Below are positions 1,653-12,819 of a stretch of DNA of 64,000 bases, in pieces. Within the stretch, counting starts at the first letter, position 1, and each line of letters begins with the position of its first letter. The notes under the pieces were generated by a model. That model searched no databases. It saw nothing but the letters and a program-made list of their open reading frames with translations, and had not been told where the DNA came from. The DNA lies in sequence record MW679410.1; one strand, given 5' to 3'. The position numbers and the translations under genes are program-made. The DNA is from Escherichia phage C6.

Positions 1653-3635
1653 ATGTCTTTATTATCACCGGGCATTGAGCTCAAAGAAACGTCCGTACAG
1701 AGTACTGTCGTTCGTAACGCAACGGGTCGTGCAGCGCTGGTTGGTAAATTCCAGTGGGGCCCTGCTTTCCAGGTAACTCAAATTACTAACGAAGTTGAAC
1801 TGGTGGATTTGTTTGGAGGTCCTAACAACGAAGTGGCAGATTATTTTATGTCTGGTATGAACTTCCTCCAGTATGGTAACGACCTTCGTACTGTTCGTGT
1901 TGTTAACCGTGAATTCGCTAAAAACGCATCTCCTGTTGCAGGCAATATAGAAACCACTATTACTACGGCTGGTTCTAACTATGCAGTAGGCGATAAAATC
2001 AATATTAAATATAACCAAACTGTAATCGAATCTGAAGGCCGTGTGACTTCTGTAGATACGGATGGTAAAATTCTTTCCGTGTTTATCCCATCAGCAAAAA
2101 TTATTGCTTATGCACGTTCTTTAAACCAGTATCCTACCCTGGGTCCGGCTTGGACGGCTGAAGTTACTTCCGCTTCTTCTGGTGTTTCTGGTACTATTAC
2201 CGTAGGTAAAATTGTTACCGATTCTGGTATTCTTTTGACTGAAGCCGAGAATAGTGAAGAAGCTATTACTTCTCTTGAATTCCAAGCCTCTCTTAAGAAA
2301 TTTGCTATGCCTGGCGTAGTGGCTCTTTATCCAGGCGAAATTGGTTCTACTCTGGAAGTAGAAATCGTTTCCAAAGCAGCTTACGATGCAGGTTCTACTA
2401 AAATGCTGGATATTTATCCGGGTGGTGGTTCTCGTGCTTCTATTGCCAAGGCGGTATTTAATTACGGTCCACAAACAGATGACCAATACGCGATTATTGT
2501 TCGTCGTGATGGCGCTATCGTAGAATCCGTCGTACTTTCTACCAAAGAAGGTGAAAAAGACGTTTACGGTAATAACATTTATCTCGATGACTATTTCGCT
2601 AAAGGCACTTCTAACTATATTTTTGCTACCTCTTTGAACTGGCCTAAAGGCTTCAGTGGTATCATTAATCTGATGGGTGGTGTATCTGCTAACGATCAGG
2701 TTACTGCAGGTGATTTGATGCAGGGTTGGGATTTGTTTGCCGACCGTGAAGCACTCCATATTAACCTTTTGATTGCTGGTGCTGTTGCTGGTGAAGGCGA
2801 TGAAGTTGCTTCTACCGTTCAGAAACACGTGGTGAGCATTGCTGATGAACGTCAAGATTGCTTAGCCTTTATTTCTCCTCCTAAAGGACTGTTGGTTAAC
2901 GTTCCATTGACTCGTGCAGTAGATAACCTTATTGACTGGCGTACAGGTGCAGGTACTTTCGATACCAACAACATGAACATTAGCACCACTTATGCTGCTA
3001 TTGATGGTAACTATAAATATCAGTATGACAAATATAATGACGTAAACCGTTGGGTGCCTCTGGCAGCCGATATGGCCGGTTTGTGTGCGCGTACAGATGA
3101 TGTTTCTCAGCCTTGGATGTCTCCGGCTGGTTATAACCGTGGTCAGATTCTTAACGTTCTGAAATTGGCAATTGAACCGCGCCAAGCTCAACGTGACCGC
3201 ATGTACCAAGAAGCTATTAACCCAGTTGTTGGTTTTGCTGGTGGTGATGGTTTCGTATTGTTTGGTGATAAGACTGCAACTAAAGTTCCATCTCCGATGG
3301 ACCATATTAACGTTCGCCGTCTGTTCAACATGCTTAAGAAAAATATCGGTGATGCCTCTAAATATAAACTGTTTGAATTGAACGACAACTTCACTCGTTC
3401 AAGCTTCCGTATGGAAGTTTCTCAGTACTTAGATGGTATTAAGGCACTTGGTGGGATTTATGAAGGACGTGTGGTTTGCGATACTACAGTGAACACCCCT
3501 GCGGTTATCGACCGTAATGAGTTTATTGCTAATATCTACGTTAAACCGTCGAGATCAATAAATTACATCACGTTGAACTTCGTTGCAACGAGCACTGGTG
3601 CTGATTTTGATGAATTGATTGGACCTTTAGTATAA
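1653..3635 (+). CDS. 18: Tail sheath protein gp18
   Basis: 660 aa; N-terminus MSLLSPGIELKETSVQST and C-terminus INYITLNFVATSTGADFDEL match T4 gp18 (659 aa) from memory. Confidence 0.95.
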   Translation: MSLLSPGIELKETSVQSTVVRNATGRAALVGKFQWGPAFQVTQITNEVELVDLFGGPNNEVADYFMSGMNFLQYGNDLRTVRVVNREFAKNASPVAGNIETTITTAGSNYAVGDKINIKYNQTVIESEGRVTSVDTDGKILSVFIPSAKIIAYARSLNQYPTLGPAWTAEVTSASSGVSGTITVGKIVTDSGILLTEAENSEEAITSLEFQASLKKFAMPGVVALYPGEIGSTLEVEIVSKAAYDAGSTKMLDIYPGGGSRASIAKAVFNYGPQTDDQYAIIVRRDGAIVESVVLSTKEGEKDVYGNNIYLDDYFAKGTSNYIFATSLNWPKGFSGIINLMGGVSANDQVTAGDLMQGWDLFADREALHINLLIAGAVAGEGDEVASTVQKHVVSIADERQDCLAFISPPKGLLVNVPLTRAVDNLIDWRTGAGTFDTNNMNISTTYAAIDGNYKYQYDKYNDVNRWVPLAADMAGLCARTDDVSQPWMSPAGYNRGQILNVLKLAIEPRQAQRDRMYQEAINPVVGFAGGDGFVLFGDKTATKVPSPMDHINVRRLFNMLKKNIGDASKYKLFELNDNFTRSSFRMEVSQYLDGIKALGGIYEGRVVCDTTVNTPAVIDRNEFIANIYVKPSRSINYITLNFVATSTGADFDELIGPLV

Positions 3636-3760
3636 TCTATTATCCCAGGCTGTAATATAAAGAACCTAAAACTATTATACCATGTGTTTGGTTACAGCGT
3701 ACATCACGTAGAATTGCGCCTGGGATTGATTATTCTTTAGGAATATGATTTATCAACTGT

Positions 3761-3768
3761 TATAAATA
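3761..3768 (+). promoter_or_regulatory. Late promoter box TATAAATA upstream of gene 19
   Basis: Exact TATAAATA about 50 nt before the gene 19 start. Confidence 0.6.
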
Positions 3769-3781
3769 AATTAATCAGAAC

Positions 3782-3802
3782 GTTCCTGGTGTGTCCAGGA
3801 AC
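3782..3802 (+). promoter_or_regulatory. Stem-loop (8-bp stem, 5-nt loop) between late promoter and gene 19 RBS
   Basis: GTTCCTGG-TGTGT-CCAGGAAC perfect inverted repeat. Confidence 0.5.
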
Positions 3803-3820
3803 TGACTTATGAGGCATCCC

Positions 3821-4312
3821 ATGGAGTTGACAGATATCACTCGTGCATTTGAGTCAGGTGACTTTGCACGCCCTAACCTTTTCGAAGTGGAAATTCCATT
3901 TCTCGGTAAAAACTTTAGCTTTAAATGTAAAGCAGCACCTATGCCGGCAGGCATTGTAGAAAAAGTACCGGTTGGCTACATGAACCGTAAAATTAACGTA
4001 GCTGGTGACCGTACGTTTGATGATTGGACTATTACCATTTATAACGATGATGCACATGACACTCGTCAAGCAATTGTTGATTGGCAGAATCTCTGTCATG
4101 GTATGACCAATGAAATTACGGGTGCAGCACCTGCAGAATATAAGAAACAAGCAGTAGTTCGCCAGTTCCATCGTGACGGCAAGACTGTGACCAAAGAAGT
4201 TACAATTTACGGCTTATGGCCTACTAACGTTGGTGAAGTCCAGATGGATTGGGATTCAAACAACGAAGTTGAAACGTTTGAAAGTACGTTCGCTATCGAT
4301 TGGTGGGAATGA
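3821..4312 (+). CDS. 19: Tail tube protein gp19
   Basis: TRAFESGDFARPNLFEVEI matches T4 gp19; start moved to the Met at 3821 (GAGG 6 nt upstream, N-terminal length then equals T4); ORF-track start 3809 is the alternative. Confidence 0.9.
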   Translation: MELTDITRAFESGDFARPNLFEVEIPFLGKNFSFKCKAAPMPAGIVEKVPVGYMNRKINVAGDRTFDDWTITIYNDDAHDTRQAIVDWQNLCHGMTNEITGAAPAEYKKQAVVRQFHRDGKTVTKEVTIYGLWPTNVGEVQMDWDSNNEVETFESTFAIDWWE

Positions 4313-4313
4313 G

Positions 4314-4321
4314 TATAAATA
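4314..4321 (+). promoter_or_regulatory. Late promoter box TATAAATA upstream of gene 20
   Basis: Exact TATAAATA immediately after the gene 19 stop. Confidence 0.6.
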
Positions 4322-4329
4322 GAATTATC

Positions 4330-4347
4330 AAGGAGCTTCGGCTCCTT
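4330..4347 (+). promoter_or_regulatory. Stem-loop with UUCG tetraloop in the gene 19-20 intergenic region
   Basis: AAGGAGC-TTCG-GCTCCTT; may act as gene 19 terminator/attenuator or as 5' hairpin of the gene 20 transcript. Confidence 0.5.
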
Positions 4348-4369
4348 ATCCCATTCATCGGAGACTCTA

Positions 4370-5944
4370 ATGGCAAACTTTAATACAATATTAAGTTTTC
4401 TTAAGCCATGGGCTAATGAAGACGAAAAAGAATATAAACAACAAATTAATAACAATTTAGAGTCTGTCACCGCACCTAAGCTTGATGATGGCGCTCGCGA
4501 AATTGAGACACAAGAGCAAAATATTCCTTATAATGCTCTTATGCAACAGATGTTTGGTAGTAATGAGCCTGAAGTTAAAAATACCAGGGAACTTATTGAT
4601 ACCTACCGTAATTTAATGAATAACTATGAAGTCGACAACGCCGTACAGGAAATTGTGTCTGATGCTATTGTCTATGAGGATGATAAAGAAGTAGTTGCAT
4701 TGAATTTAGACGGGACAGAATTTAGTCAAGCAATTAAAGATAAAATCTTGGCCGAATTCAGTGAAGTTTTAAACCTTTTAAATTTCCAACGTAAAGGCAC
4801 TGACCATTTCCAACGCTGGTATGTAGACTCAAGAATTTTCTTTCATAAAATTATAAACCCTAAAAAAATGAAAGAGGGCGTACAAGAGCTTCGTCGCTTG
4901 GACCCACGCCAAGTCCAATATATTCGTGAAATCGTTACACGTATGGAAGACGGTGTTAAAATTGTAGACGGATATCGTGAGTTTTTCGTTTACGACACAG
5001 GTCATGAAAGCTATTGCGCAGATGGACGCATTTATTCAGCTGGGACTAAAGTTAAAATTCCTCGTGCTGCTGTGGTTTATGCCCATTCAGGATTATTAGA
5101 TTGTTGTGGTAAAAACATCATTGGCTATTTGCAACGTGCTATTAAGCCTGCAAACCAGCTTAAATTGATGGAAGATGCAATGGTCATCTACCGTATTACA
5201 CGTGCTCCTGACCGTCGTGTGTTTTATATCGATACAGGTAATATGCCTTCACGTAAGGCTGCAGCACAAATGCAACATATCATGAACACGATGAAAAACC
5301 GTGTGGTGTATGATGCTTCGACAGGTAAAATTAAAAACCAACAACACAATATGTCCATGACTGAAGACTATTGGTTGCAACGTCGTGACGGTAAAGCGGT
5401 AACAGAAGTTGATACAATGCCAGGTGCTACTGGTATGAGTGATATGGATGACGTTCTTTATTTCCGCACAGCACTTTATCGTGCGCTGCGTGTTCCTGAA
5501 TCACGTATCCCTAGCGAGTCTAATTCTGGTGTTATGTTTGATGCCGGTACAGCAATCACTCGTGACGAATTAAAATTCTCTAAATGGATTCGTCAGCTAC
5601 AAAACAAATTTGAAGAAATTTTCCTAGACCCATTAAAAACAAACCTCATTCTTAAAAAGATTATTACAGAAGATGAGTGGGAAAAGGAAATAAATAATAT
5701 TAAAGTTACGTTTAACCGTGATAGCTATTTCAGTGAAATGAAAGATGCTGAAATCATGGAACGCAGAATCAATATGCTAACGATGGCTGAACCATTTATT
5801 GGTAAGTACATTTCACATCAAACGGCTATGAAAGATTTCCTCCAAATGACTGACGAAGAAATTAATCAAGAAGCTAAGCAAATTGAAGAAGAGTCTAAAG
5901 AGGCTCGTTTCCAAAACCCAGATGAAGAAGAAGAGGATTTCTAA
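4370..5944 (+). CDS. 20: Portal vertex protein gp20
   Basis: 524 aa, same length as T4 gp20; [20 protein letters not shown] and C-terminal [10 protein letters not shown] conserved. Confidence 0.95.
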
Positions 5945-8128: not shown

Positions 8129-9688
8129 ATGAAAAAGAATGCATTAGTTCAAAAATGGTCCGCTCTGCTGGAAAACGAAGCCCTTCCTGAAATCGTGGGT
8201 GCTTCTAAACAAGCTATCATCGCTAAAATTTTCGAAAATCAGGAACAAGACATCCTGACTGCCCCGGAATACCGTGATGAAAAAATCTCCGAAGCATTTG
8301 GTTCTTTCCTGACCGAAGCTGAAATTGGTGGTGACCACGGTTATGATGCTACCAATATCGCAGCTGGCCAGACTTCTGGTGCTGTAACTCAGATTGGGCC
8401 GGCAGTAATGGGTATGGTTCGTCGTGCTATTCCTCATCTGATTGCTTTTGATATTTGTGGTGTTCAGCCTCTGAATAACCCTACCGGCCAGGTATTTGCC
8501 CTGCGCGCAGTTTATGGTAAAGACCCTATTGCTGCTGGCGCTAAAGAAGCTTTCCATCCGATGTATGCTCCGAACGCTATGTTCTCTGGTCAGGGCGCTG
8601 CTCAGACTTTTGAAGCACTGGCTGCAAGCAAAGTTCTGGAAGTTGGTAAAATTTATTCCCACTTCTTCGAAGCTACCGGTTCTGCACACTTCCAGGCTGT
8701 TGAAGCTGTAACCGTTGATGCAGGCGCTACTGATGCCGCTAAACTGGATGCTGCTGTTACCGCTTTGATTGAAGCTGGTCAGTTGGCTGAATTGGCTGAA
8801 GGTATGGCTACTTCTATCGCTGAACTTCAGGAAGGTTTTAACGGTTCCCAGGATAACCCGTGGAACGAAATGGGCTTCCGTATCGACAAACAAGTTATCG
8901 AAGCTAAATCCCGTCAGCTGAAAGCAAGCTACTCTATCGAACTGGCACAGGACCTTCGTGCAGTACACGGTATGGATGCAGATGCTGAACTGTCCGGTAT
9001 CCTTGCTACCGAAATTATGCTCGAAATCAACCGTGAAGTTATCGATTGGATTAACTACTCTGCACAGGTTGGTAAATCTGGTATGACCAACACCGTTGGC
9101 GCTAAAGCTGGTGTGTTTGACTTCCAGGACCCGATTGATATCCGTGGTGCTCGTTGGGCCGGTGAGAGCTTTAAAGCCCTTCTGTTCCAGATTGATAAAG
9201 AAGCAGCCGAAATCGCTCGTCAGACCGGTCGTGGTGCTGGTAACTTCATCATCGCTTCCCGTAACGTAGTTAACGTACTGGCTGCAGTTGATACTTCTGT
9301 AAGTTATGCAGCTCAAGGTCTGGGTCAAGGTTTCAACGTTGACACAACCAAAGCAGTATTTGCCGGTGTTCTTGGTGGTAAATATCGCGTTTACATCGAC
9401 CAGTATGCACGTTCCGATTACTTCACCATCGGTTATAAAGGCGCTAACGAAATGGACGCAGGTATCTACTATGCTCCGTACGTTGCACTGACCCCGCTGC
9501 GTGGTTCCGATCCGAAGAACTTCCAACCGGTAATGGGCTTCAAAACTCGTTACGGTATCGGTATCAACCCGTTTGCTGACCCGTCTGCACAGGCTCCTAC
9601 CAAACGTATTCAGAGCGGTATGCCTGACATCGTTAACAGCCTTGGTCTGAATGGTTACTTCCGTCGCGTATATGTTAAAGGTATCTAA
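8129..9688 (+). CDS. 23: Major capsid protein gp23
   Basis: 519 aa; long colinear match to T4 gp23 (EAEIGGDHGYDATNIAAGQTSGAVTQIGPAVMGMVRRAIP...GINPFA...YFRRVYVKGI). Confidence 0.97.
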   Translation: MKKNALVQKWSALLENEALPEIVGASKQAIIAKIFENQEQDILTAPEYRDEKISEAFGSFLTEAEIGGDHGYDATNIAAGQTSGAVTQIGPAVMGMVRRAIPHLIAFDICGVQPLNNPTGQVFALRAVYGKDPIAAGAKEAFHPMYAPNAMFSGQGAAQTFEALAASKVLEVGKIYSHFFEATGSAHFQAVEAVTVDAGATDAAKLDAAVTALIEAGQLAELAEGMATSIAELQEGFNGSQDNPWNEMGFRIDKQVIEAKSRQLKASYSIELAQDLRAVHGMDADAELSGILATEIMLEINREVIDWINYSAQVGKSGMTNTVGAKAGVFDFQDPIDIRGARWAGESFKALLFQIDKEAAEIARQTGRGAGNFIIASRNVVNVLAAVDTSVSYAAQGLGQGFNVDTTKAVFAGVLGGKYRVYIDQYARSDYFTIGYKGANEMDAGIYYAPYVALTPLRGSDPKNFQPVMGFKTRYGIGINPFADPSAQAPTKRIQSGMPDIVNSLGLNGYFRRVYVKGI

Positions 9689-9704
9689 GATATAACCTTA
9701 TTAT

Positions 9705-9735
9705 GGGAGACTTCGGTCTCCCATTCTTGTTTCTG
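9705..9735. terminator. Rho-independent terminator after gene 23
   Basis: GGGAGAC-TTCG-GTCTCCC hairpin followed by a T-rich tract (ATTCTTGTTTCT). Confidence 0.8.
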
Positions 9736-9737
9736 TA

Positions 9738-10004
9738 CTATGCAATCTTAACTCGACGATTGATGATATCACGGAAGTCAATACGATTTTCTTGGATTTT
9801 CAGCCAGTTACCAGATTTGTCTTTGGTATGGGTAGAGTATTCACCGTTCCACCAGAAGTCAGTTTCATAAGCTAGGGCTTCGTATTTCTTAACCAATGCA
9901 TTAACTGCATTACCGTTAGGATTGGTACCAAATTTTTCTACCAGAGCTTTGATGTCTTTGTCAAGGTTAGAAAGTGTAGTACGGATAAAGTTTAATTTGT
10001 TCAT
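9738..10004 (-). CDS. Hypothetical early protein, 88 aa, at the position occupied by segD in T4
   Basis: Minus-strand ORF between late genes 23 and 24; start taken at the second Met (10004) because GAGGAG lies 7 nt upstream; own early-type promoter at 10034-10063; not GIY-YIG-like. Confidence 0.6.
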   Translation of the reverse strand: MNKLNFIRTTLSNLDKDIKALVEKFGTNPNGNAVNALVKKYEALAYETDFWWNGEYSTHTKDKSGNWLKIQENRIDFRDIINRRVKIA

Positions 10005-10033
10005 TTTTAATCTCCTCATGTTTTGATAGGTCT

Positions 10034-10063
10034 ATAGTAACACGACGCTTTTTGTGTGTAAAC
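10034..10063 (-). promoter_or_regulatory. Early-type sigma70 promoter for the 88-aa ORF
   Basis: Minus strand GTTTAC (-35), 18-nt spacer, TACTAT (-10) with TG two bases upstream. Confidence 0.55.
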
Positions 10064-10069
10064 CACTTT

Positions 10070-10077
10070 TATAAATA
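10070..10077 (+). promoter_or_regulatory. Late promoter box TATAAATA upstream of gene 24
   Basis: Exact TATAAATA about 30 nt before the gene 24 ATG. Confidence 0.6.
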
Positions 10078-10106
10078 AAATTATATTCTCAATAAGGAAA
10101 ATAGCA

Positions 10107-11387
10107 ATGGCTAAAATTAACGACCTTTTAAAAGAGTCGACCACTACTTCGAGTTCTTCGATTGGTCGTCCAAATTTAGTAGCTTTAACCAGAGCTACGA
10201 CCAAACTGATTTATACCGACCTTGTAGCTCAGCAGCGTACTAACCAACCTTTGGCTGCTCTATATGGTATCAAATATCTTACAGAAAAAAACGAATTATC
10301 TTTCCAGACAGGTGCTACTTATTCTGGTGCAGTATCCGCTAAAGACCGTGCCTCTATCCCAGTTTTCACTGCAGGTGCTGTTTACGCTAAAGATGATTTG
10401 TTCCAATTTGAAAACGTAGTTTATAAAGCTTTGGTAGCAACACCATTTGCAGGTGCTACTGGCGATGAATACGAACAACTTCAAGAAGCTATTGTTAAGT
10501 TGACTATTCGTATTATGTCCGAAGCCGCACTGACTGAGCGTTTTGAAGGCCTCCAGGATGTAGATGTTTCTGAAGCCAAATTCGTCGTTAATAAATGGAA
10601 CGCTCCAGTTAAATCCCGTAAGTTGAAGAGTACTGTTACTGTAGAACTGGCTCAAGACCTCGAAGCAAATGGTTTCGATGCCCCTAATTTCTTGGAAGAC
10701 CTCCTGGCTACTGAAATGGCTGATGAAATCAACAAAGATATTCTTCAGTCCCTGGTTACGGTTTCCAAGCGTTATAAAGTTGAAGGTTTGTGTGATGACG
10801 GCTTAATTGACCTGAGTTATGCTAACTCACCGGAAGCTTCTCGCAAGCTTTATGAAATAGTTTGTGAAATGGTTTCTCATATCCAGCGCGCAACCTCTTA
10901 TACGGCAACTTATGTAGTAGCGAGTACTCGCGTAGCCGCTGTTCTGGCTGGTTCTGGCTGGTTAAGACATACCCCACAGAACGACAAATATCTTTCTGCA
11001 AATGCATACGGATTCCTGGAAAATGGTTTGCCTGTGTATTGTGATACCAACACGCCAATTGATTATGTTACTGTAGGTGTTAAAGAGGAATTTGGTGGGA
11101 AAGAAGCAGTAGGTTCTTTGTTCTATGCGCCGTATACAGAAGGCCTTGATTTGGCTGACCCTGAACATGTGGGTACATTTAAAGTGGTCGTTGACCCTGA
11201 AAGCCTGCAACCATCTATTGCATTAATGGTTCGTTATGCACTGGCTGCTAACCCTTATACGGTTACTTCCGATGATAAACAAGCCCGTATTATTGATGCG
11301 ACTAATATGGATTTGATGGCGGGACGTTCTGATATGTCCGTATTGCTTGGTGTGAAACTTCCTAAAGTTTTGACTGAATTAAACTAA
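10107..11387 (+). CDS. 24: Capsid vertex protein gp24
   Basis: 426 aa; MAKINDLLKESTTTSSSSIGRPNLVALTRATTKLIY and ELAQDLEANGFDAPNFLEDLLATEMADEINKDILQSL match T4 gp24. Confidence 0.95.
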   Translation: MAKINDLLKESTTTSSSSIGRPNLVALTRATTKLIYTDLVAQQRTNQPLAALYGIKYLTEKNELSFQTGATYSGAVSAKDRASIPVFTAGAVYAKDDLFQFENVVYKALVATPFAGATGDEYEQLQEAIVKLTIRIMSEAALTERFEGLQDVDVSEAKFVVNKWNAPVKSRKLKSTVTVELAQDLEANGFDAPNFLEDLLATEMADEINKDILQSLVTVSKRYKVEGLCDDGLIDLSYANSPEASRKLYEIVCEMVSHIQRATSYTATYVVASTRVAAVLAGSGWLRHTPQNDKYLSANAYGFLENGLPVYCDTNTPIDYVTVGVKEEFGGKEAVGSLFYAPYTEGLDLADPEHVGTFKVVVDPESLQPSIALMVRYALAANPYTVTSDDKQARIIDATNMDLMAGRSDMSVLLGVKLPKVLTELN

Positions 11388-11419: not shown

Positions 11420-12424
11420 TTACGACACTAATTCAATCCATACTGCTCGTAGGGTATCTTTTACACACTCAACGAGCTGCTTTTTAACTTCAACAGGATT
11501 TTCTGCATCGGTTAATTCTAATTCTTCACGGGCGGCTTCTTCTAAGATATCTTGGACTGTCAAGCCCATTACCTTTCCGAAATCCTTTTTAGATACTTCG
11601 CCAATCTTACTGATGACATTATTAATGCGGTTAACAGTCACATAATCGGTGAATTGCCACATCAAATCCATATCGTCTTGGGATAAAACTACCACAGTCT
11701 TGATAGGCTTATCGGACTTTTTCTTCTCGCTGAATTTAGAGTTCTTACATTTAATCGCTACGCGATTTCCGTTTGGAAGCCAGGTAGGAATATCAGGTTT
11801 AAGTACAAAGCCTTCGGCTGTAAATACTTTACCTTCTACCTTAGGAATAAAGTCTGTCGAGTTTGCAATAGTTAGGCCAGCGTTATCCACTGCAAAATTA
11901 TAATCAGGAATAACTGAATCAAAGTCGTTAGGTAATTTAATAAGGTCTTCAAAGCTACCGGTGGCCAGACATGGAGCTACCTTAAACTTATGGATAATAC
12001 AGAAGGCTTCCATCAATGTATCGGTTAGAACAGATTCTGAACCATCTTCCTTAGTAACTCGGATATCGAACACATAAAAGTCTTTATCGCCGTAGTCCAC
12101 ATTCTTCTGGATACCTGTCCCAGCGAATTCGCCATAAATCTGGTACGACTGATAATTAATCGATTCAATTAGATGTTGAACAGATTTAATAGAATCAGCA
12201 TAGTTCTTAAGTACAATTTCATAACCATAGAAATCTTCAGCAGGGAGGATAGGGCCAGTGCGCTTGGCGCATGTGACTGCGTCACGTTCTATGATTAAAC
12301 TAAAGTTGGTTCCATGAATCTTCTCACGTGCCACCCATTCACCACTGGTCAAACCATTAGTACGGAGTTTTTCGATAAACTTACTGTTGTAGTGGTTTTC
12401 GAGACTGCTATATTTCTTGAACAT
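11420..12424 (-). CDS. rnlB: RNA ligase 2 (RnlB)
   Basis: 334 aa, same length as T4 Rnl2; [20 protein letters not shown]...[17 protein letters not shown] with the ligase KxHGxN motif. Confidence 0.93.
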
Positions 12425-12538: not shown

Positions 12539-12748
12539 TTACTTTGAACTAGAACGCGCTTTGCGCCGAACCTTGTTGTTCAATCTTTTACGATAAACAA
12601 CCTTTTCTTTCGCTTTAAATTTGGCCTTGGCTTGTTCTACATCAACCCATGCTTTGGCCATGTCCTTAGCGGTCCCGCCCATTTTTTTAGCAATTTCTAT
12701 AAAATTCAACCCAGATTCGTGTAAAAAATGTACTTTAACCTTATCCAT
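12539..12748 (-). CDS. Hypothetical small basic protein (24.2/24.3 position)
   Basis: 69-aa ORF between rnlB and hoc, lysine/arginine-rich C-terminus; no recognisable domain. Confidence 0.5.
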   Translation of the reverse strand: MDKVKVHFLHESGLNFIEIAKKMGGTAKDMAKAWVDVEQAKAKFKAKEKVVYRKRLNNKVRRKARSSSK

Positions 12749-12819
12749 AACAATTCTCTCGTTGAGTTGGTAAAACCCATCTTAACATAGAATTTTTAAC
12801 TTGTAAACAGGAATTTTGT

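Follow-up and report, generated by a model that had tools for sequence, protein, structure and literature searches.

The region between genes 23 and 24

The window analysed here is the whole 64,000-nt stretch of Escherichia phage C6 (MW679410.1), a T4-like coliphage of the genus Dhakavirus. Over positions 9500–10300 it shares 99.5% identity with Escherichia phage AnYang, whose record lists the ORF described below as a hypothetical protein. Gene 23, encoding the major capsid protein, ends at position 9688 and gene 24, encoding the vertex protein, starts at 10107, both on the plus strand. The spacer between them contains an ORF of 88 codons on the minus strand at 9738–10004 (stop codon included), with its ATG at 10004–10002, a TAG at 9740–9738 and the inferred product MNKLNF...RRVKIA. 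It is preceded by the Shine-Dalgarno sequence GAGGAG (10017–10012, minus strand) 7 nt 5' of the ATG, the 5' leader is unstructured by folding, and GGAG or GAGGAG is present in every aligned orthologue. An alternative in-frame ATG at 10019, used in several GenBank records, would give 93 aa. It overlaps with GAGGAG and lacks conservation, a stop codon standing in its place in the Mosigvirus orthologue, so that the 88-codon reading is the right one.

Downstream of gene 23 there is an intrinsic terminator hairpin (9703–9724, plus strand) with a 9-bp stem, a UUCG loop and a T-rich tail reaching to about 9734. The calculated free energy is -15.4 kcal/mol on the plus strand and -14.8 kcal/mol on the minus strand, with a z-score of about -3.4. 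The T-run is found on the plus strand only. Read on the minus strand, where no U-run follows it, the same hairpin is also a 3' hairpin directly past the stop codon of the ORF. It is 98–100% conserved in the dhakaviruses and in the Tequatrovirus copies of the cassette, and an Rfam search over 9400–10400 returned only a sub-threshold match to PhrS, located on this hairpin.

An early-type σ70 promoter is located upstream of the ORF on the minus strand (10034–10063). It has GTTTAC(A) as -35 region (10063–10057), a spacer of 18 nt after GTTTAC and an extended -10 region TGTTACTAT (10042–10034), made up of TGn at 10042–10040 and TACTAT at 10039–10034, and from its sequence transcription is predicted to start near 10027. 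On the plus strand the motif TATAAATA (10070–10077), the established T4 late promoter motif, which from its sequence should serve gene 24, stands back to back with the early promoter and lies inside the A/T-rich region upstream of it. These elements were all found as given in the preliminary description of this DNA, which had listed a minus-strand ORF of 88 codons, the GAGGAG, a GTTTAC-N18-TACTAT promoter and the gene 23 hairpin beyond the stop codon. Its statement that T4 has segD in the same slot is also correct, and T4 segD is likewise on the minus strand. A further σ70-like match, TTGCTA-N16-TATAAT (10107–10080), possibly a MotA-type middle promoter, was set aside, as its -10 region is not conserved in Gaprivervirus and Mosigvirus.

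Early promoters of T4 have a -35 region GTTTAC(A), 17–18 nt of spacer and a -10 region TAnnAT, often extended by TGn and with A-rich sequence upstream. The promoter of the ORF, GTTTACA-N17-TGTTACTAT with ATAAAAGTG 5' of it, has the sequence of a promoter of this type. Generic σ70 sites are not enriched in the region (6 sites with 9.7 expected). The 64-kb window does, however, hold 11 sites with the specific pattern GTTTAC-N17-19-TANNAT, every one on the minus strand, with 0.84 expected; none of 100 shuffled sequences reached 11, and TGn precedes the -10 region in most of the sites, all of which points to this pattern as the early promoter class of the phage. The ten other sites, all on the minus strand (12808–12779, 24620–24591, 35158–35130, 39498–39469, 41945–41916, 43237–43209, 50519–50490, 50808–50780, 51514–51486 and 54782–54754), map further candidate early promoters; the site at 12808–12779 lies 30 nt upstream of a 69-codon ORF (12539–12748) between rnlB and hoc. 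In an alignment of 13 alleles of the slot promoter from five lineages, T4 included, the -35 region, the extended -10 region and the spacing are constant and the sequence of the spacer varies; the Gaprivervirus alleles deviate in having CATAAT as -10 region and no TG.

A strong terminator for the minus strand (11413–11392) is located after rnlB, upstream of the ORF, and since it should block read-through the ORF needs a promoter of its own. The terminator is a GC-rich 9-bp hairpin between the convergent genes 24 (end at 11387) and rnlB (end at 11420); it scores as a minus-strand terminator and is probably shared by the two genes.

For T4 segD, Edgell et al. 2010 (PMC2988022) stated in a review that no specific promoter had been found and that very low expression was assumed. 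The supplementary data of Wolfram-Schauerte et al. 2022 (PMC9697503) list T4 segD as an early RNA and a middle protein, with the protein detected. On the segD strand 5' of segD in T4 (NC_000866, 107233–107322) there is a sequence ATTTAC-N18-TATTAT (or TTTACA-N17-TATTAT) with TGn before the -10 region, and this upstream region aligns as a homologue of the promoter region of the window ORF. The homologous T4 promoter is thus very probably active early, and a conserved early-type promoter 5' of segD fits the early class assigned by the omics data, as against the absence of a promoter noted in 2010. Together, the sequence and the T4 data suggest that the ORF should be expressed early in phage C6 as well. 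The earlier claim that the ORF has its own early-type promoter is consequently well founded, given the class of 11 sites, the conservation across lineages and the homologous region in front of the early gene segD of T4.

The PHROG 6003 family and its predicted protein

Within Dhakavirus the pairwise dN/dS of the ORF (Nei-Gojobori) is 0.05–0.12 at dS values of 0.3–0.47, and it stays below 0.5 at all depths where dS is unsaturated. The ORF is therefore under strong purifying selection and is not a chance reading frame but a genuine gene. It is ordinary in kind. Many genome records list it as a hypothetical protein, and it belongs to PHROG 6003, whose profile it matches over residues 1–88 (positions 1–88 of 90; E-value 2.2e-49). 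JS98 ORF173c, VR7 gp190 (VR7ORF190c) and AnYang ORF119 are family members, none with a function assigned, and in many GenBank records an identical or nearly identical protein is annotated in this slot. The protein was found in 130 phage records by tblastn with the Dhakavirus query and in 239 with a Mosigvirus query, giving a family of about 240 records of phages of E. coli and Shigella.

The orthologues of other dhakaviruses show 90–100% amino acid identity to the window protein and occupy the gene 23/24 slot on the opposite strand. The same slot holds the orthologues of Gaprivervirus (about 65%), of Mosigvirus (about 120 records, about 33%), of a few members of Tequatrovirus (GEP001 and 310Ecol104PP, about 91–93%) and of uncultured T4-like phages (28–57%). 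With 65 and 33% identity between genera the protein evolves fast. Homologues with about 40% identity are present in rV5-like phages (Vequintavirinae), where they lie in long runs of small genes on the same strand with no function assigned, and the carriers thus belong to two unrelated phage lineages, T4-like and rV5-like. The family is small. When 1.8 billion representative proteins were searched exhaustively with the family profile, only nine clusters and no additional lineages were obtained, and a scan of IMG/VR recovered the same isolate genomes and nothing else. Two large proteins among the nine clusters, P0025 and P0026, are built of repeats, match the profile only through short repeated stretches (an SNGNQ-type motif in P0025) and are not relatives, and P0023 is a 160-aa chimera from a 701-bp contig, in which an unrelated N-terminus is joined to family residues of about 32–63.

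Hosts named in the records examined are E. coli, Shigella and close enterics, with the exception of one Vequintavirinae record labelled Acinetobacter. This record, Acinetobacter phage ABPH49 (MH533020, positions 2501–2767 of the piece examined), holds the closest homologue outside the T4-like phages, with 41% amino acid identity and a GTG start; as ABPH49 is classed among the rV5-like phages, its host label may deserve checking. Another label concerns the Gaprivervirus orthologue of EAWsc9 (PQ341120, positions 401–682 of the piece examined), which is named glycosyl hydrolase family 25, probably an annotation error as neither the sequence nor Pfam supports it.

AlphaFold2, run with an alignment of 19 sequences, gives a model with a mean pLDDT of 93.7, in which helices at residues 3–25 and 31–48 are followed by a beta hairpin (52–61 and 67–71) and a helix at 77–87. 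Among the viral structures of BFVD the sole significant match is an independently modelled homologue from an rV5-like phage (TM-score 0.90), and Foldseek searches of PDB and BFVD gave no match outside the PHROG 6003 family. The protein is predicted to be soluble, with a pI of 9.5, and the pI is 9.2–9.9 across the family. Invariant residues are M1, K3, F6, N30, G31, N32, A45 and Q71, with N30-G31-N32 forming the start of helix 2. There is no conserved Asp, Glu, His, Cys or Ser in the family alignment, and no conserved catalytic or metal-binding residue. In a small protein this absence of acidic, His, Cys and Ser positions favours a binding protein over an enzyme.

Searches of Pfam, NCBIfam and PADLOC gave sub-threshold and mutually inconsistent matches only (among others DUF5380 with an E-value of 0.12, DUF4859 and Ca_bind_SSO6904), a profile search of PDB sequences was empty, and no paper on phrog_6003 or DUF5380 turned up in the literature searches. 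A reading of the N-G-N loop as an EF-hand was rejected by eye, as the loop has too few residues and lacks the acidic ligand positions, and hhalign detected no relation to the product of the small T4 gene 24.2. The fold comparison likewise gave no match to helix-turn-helix, ribbon-helix-helix or other nucleic-acid-binding folds.

The GIY-(10–11 aa)-YIG motif and the Pfam GIY-YIG domain are absent from the protein, by sequence and Pfam, and so is a C-terminal NUMOD/helix-turn-helix module; the length of 88 aa is short of the roughly 200–250 aa of a seg-type enzyme. Against the SegD orthologue of Dhakavirus hhalign gives a probability of 5%. With no Pfam match either, the preliminary description was right that the ORF does not encode a seg-type homing endonuclease.

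Alleles of the slot, segD and recombination

The slot was sampled over 1,504 T4-like records, using the two flanking gene ends as query. In most T4-like phages (T2, RB10, most of the sampled Tequatrovirus, Jiaodavirus, Karamvirus, Moon and X20) it is empty, with about 81–89 bp that contain only the terminator and TATAAATA and lack the minus-strand promoter. Altogether five alleles exist, namely empty, promoter only, promoter with ORF, promoter with ORF and segD, and promoter with segD, and TATAAATA is kept in every one. Promoter, ORF and segD are found together in 38 of 86 Dhakavirus-type records, and 53 records have the T4 type with promoter and segD.

The promoter-only allele is found in three dhakaviruses, CLB_P2, dhaeg and dhabil, isolates grown on K-12 or 55989. 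They have lost exactly the 294 bp that correspond to the leader and the ORF (9738–10031 in the window), with a 4-nt repeat ATAG at the bounds. The flanks of this allele are 99.4% identical to those of JS10, which carries the ORF, and the allele is read as a recent deletion. In the CLB_P2-type deletion the early promoter is left pointing straight into the gene 23 terminator hairpin. The copy in Tequatrovirus 310Ecol104PP (1201–1470 of the piece examined) is a pseudogene annotated as a hypothetical protein of 64 aa; a deletion following residue 43 shifts its frame, and a short stretch near KIQEN is duplicated.

As CLB_P2, dhaeg, dhabil and 310Ecol104PP are all propagated isolates, these natural variants indicate that the gene is dispensable for lytic growth. 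The preliminary description had proposed that absence or disruption of the ORF in close relatives, with the region otherwise conserved, would speak against its reading. Such relatives do exist, but they do not make the ORF non-functional: loss in relatives combined with a dN/dS of about 0.1 across about 240 genomes identifies the gene as dispensable, not functionless.

Collinear relatives are thus polymorphic for the presence of a gene that has its own promoter. Like phage morons and the small early accessory genes of the T-even hyperplastic regions, typified by T4 early ORFs, the ORF is an autonomous unit of promoter and gene that is present or absent, dispensable, fast-evolving and laterally exchanged. 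The moron concept was developed on temperate lambdoid phages, and expression of such classical morons often takes place in the prophage; unlike these, the ORF resides in a virulent phage and borrows its terminator from the opposing capsid gene. With this difference the proposal of a moron or accessory insertion gains support from the empty slots, the exchange across genera, the clean deletion and the frame-disrupted copy.

In phages 04086, IME08, ATK47, LF82-x and others a segD orthologue is inserted at a point corresponding to 9734–9748 of the window. That of phage 04086 (OR842557, positions 2771–3442 of the piece examined) is unannotated, has 223 codons and is 57% identical to T4 SegD over the full length. 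It starts 3 nt past the new stop codon of the ORF, whose last two codons and stop have been replaced, and ends at the terminator. In the dhakaviruses segD is thus predicted to be under the same promoter as the ORF, and the arrangement is that of a neighbour invading downstream of the ORF rather than of an alternative occupant. The earlier suggestion that the ORF lies where T4 carries segD holds as far as the slot is shared, but the ORF does not simply stand in place of segD, since 38 of the 86 records hold both. The T4 segD locus resembles the ORF in slot, strand, a homologous divergent promoter region and a stop codon abutting the gene 23 terminator; the protein differs, with 223 aa as against 88 and a GIY-YIG/NUMOD architecture that the ORF product, the resident neighbour, lacks. 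Most simply, the promoter-segD allele of T4 would be a derivative of the arrangement with promoter, ORF and segD from which the ORF has been lost. Gene 23 of 04086 is annotated as truncated (1110 bp), though an intact ORF of 519 codons is present at 3502–5061 of the piece examined.

Compared with the DNA of Tequatrovirus GEP001, the window is 90% identical in the ORF, 96–98% in its 3' half and 98% in the terminator, and about 72–82% in the flanking gene 23, indicating that the cassette has been exchanged between Dhakavirus and Tequatrovirus. Within the genus, the first 300 nt of gene 24 (10107–10406) are only about 66–74% identical to those of Bp7 and VR5, whereas the ORF, the terminator and the end of gene 23 are 84–100% identical to the same phages, and the end of gene 23 is 93–98% identical to that of other dhakaviruses. 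A divergent gene 24 end beside a similar gene 23 end marks the slot as a mosaic recombination breakpoint. The window phage thus carries a divergent gene 24 allele. Gaprivervirus VR7 (positions 1–2395 of the piece examined) and two uncultured T4-like contigs have two tandem copies of gene 24 following the slot, and the window has one.

Possible function of the ORF

The ORF is best explained as a non-essential early accessory gene in a mobile cassette, the product of which would bind a host macromolecule stoichiometrically, a reading to which we give about even chances. The cassette consists of the early promoter, the ribosome binding site and the 88-codon ORF, abutting the gene 23 terminator. 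Host σ70 RNA polymerase should initiate at GTTTAC/TGnTACTAT early after infection and transcribe the ORF leftward, antisense to the late capsid genes, toward the gene 23 hairpin. The predicted product is a small, soluble and basic protein with a compact helix-helix-beta hairpin-helix fold, which most likely acts stoichiometrically by binding a macromolecule specific to E. coli and Shigella. Binding would give an advantage that depends on the host range, in host takeover or counter-defence, and that is not needed on laboratory strains. The slot itself is a recombination hot spot where the cassette has been gained, exchanged across genera, deleted, and invaded downstream by segD.

A role directed at the host is suggested by the combination of early expression, dispensability on laboratory hosts, occurrence in two coliphage lineages, rapid divergence and mobility of the cassette; the runs of small same-strand genes around the rV5-like homologues were counted toward early expression. 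Several points weigh against it. No sequence or fold match was obtained to any characterised protein, the basic pI would also suit nucleic-acid binding and regulation of the phage itself, and the conserved place of the ORF between two capsid genes, the same in three genera, may point to a link to the capsid. The protein shows no similarity in sequence or fold to characterised anti-defence inhibitors. What it shares with the anti-defence and host-takeover proteins in PDB and with T4 AsiA-type binders is limited to small size, expression early in infection and an absence of catalytic motifs, and its basic pI counts against an acidic DNA mimic of the Ocr or Arn type. In the toxicity screen of early proteins from Mosigvirus AV110 only genes with T4 early homologues were tested, and by this selection the PHROG 6003 family should not have been included.

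The strongest competitor, to which we assign a rather low probability, is that the protein is a nucleic-acid-binding regulator of the phage's own expression or DNA, acting for example on the neighbouring late capsid transcripts or promoters. A pI of 9.2–9.9 throughout the family, a location at a divergent pair of early and late promoters beside genes 23 and 24, and expression that precedes the late genes would all agree with such a role. The fold comparison recovered none of the known nucleic-acid-binding folds, however, and the ORF is missing from most T4-like phages that have the same late promoter and terminator, has rV5-like homologues in a different context, and is dispensable.

Somewhat less probable is a tie to segD, with the ORF as a partner, a regulator, a target carrier, or a passenger co-converted during SegD-induced repair. 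The 38 records with segD 3 nt downstream under the same promoter, and the homologous promoter that serves T4 segD, are compatible with this, as is the finding that the cassette and its short flanks have crossed genera in the manner of co-conversion tracts; homing endonuclease genes have moreover been reported at boundaries of genetic exchange (PMC10448857). But most carriers are without segD, including about 48 Dhakavirus-type records and all Gaprivervirus and Mosigvirus slots examined, the T4-type allele is a segD without the ORF, the rV5-like homologues have no endonuclease gene nearby, and the two proteins are unrelated in sequence, so that the evidence counts against the link.

It also counts against a capsid-related role, which we consider improbable. 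A helper in folding or assembly, or a modulator of gp23 or gp24, would explain the fixed position in three genera. Dhakavirus, Gaprivervirus, Mosigvirus and uncultured relatives are strictly syntenic in having the ORF between genes 23 and 24, but this much would be seen in any case, as recombination has its anchors in the conserved genes on either side. The ORF is moreover on the opposite strand under an early promoter, is missing from most phages whose capsid genes are closely related, has been deleted in viable dhakaviruses, and its rV5-like homologues are not near capsid genes.

Least probable of all, and similarly opposed by the evidence, is that the coding sequence is incidental and that the minus-strand transcription matters, as an antisense or 'anti-late' RNA over the 3' end of gene 23 or by interference with the late promoter of gene 24: the CLB_P2-type allele does keep the promoter without the ORF, and some read-through into antisense gene 23 is plausible as the minus-strand hairpin has no U-run, but the strong purifying selection at the protein level, the conserved start codon and ribosome binding site and the confident, conserved predicted fold stand against it, and with flanks 99.4% identical to JS10 the promoter-only allele fits a recent deletion that requires no upkeep of the promoter by selection.

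The T-even phages have many small early genes that are as yet uncharacterised, and as one of these the ORF is of modest immediate value. The family is nevertheless a clean candidate for screens, with its 88 aa, its confident predicted fold and its restriction to coliphages, and as the natural deletion alleles of CLB_P2, dhaeg and dhabil are nearly isogenic with JS10, a comparison on host-range and defence panels is feasible. A broader proposal, which we hold only tentatively, is that a new fold family, common to T-even and rV5-type coliphages and made up of counter-defence or takeover factors specific to E. coli, has the 88-aa protein as its founding member, which would spread as a promoter-gene cassette via the gene 23/24 hot spot, possibly aided by SegD, and that the 'promoterless' segD of T4 may have inherited the promoter of the cassette after loss of the ORF. 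The five slot alleles form a compact natural series in which to study the establishment of free-standing homing endonucleases next to resident genes and the passage of cassettes from one genus to another.
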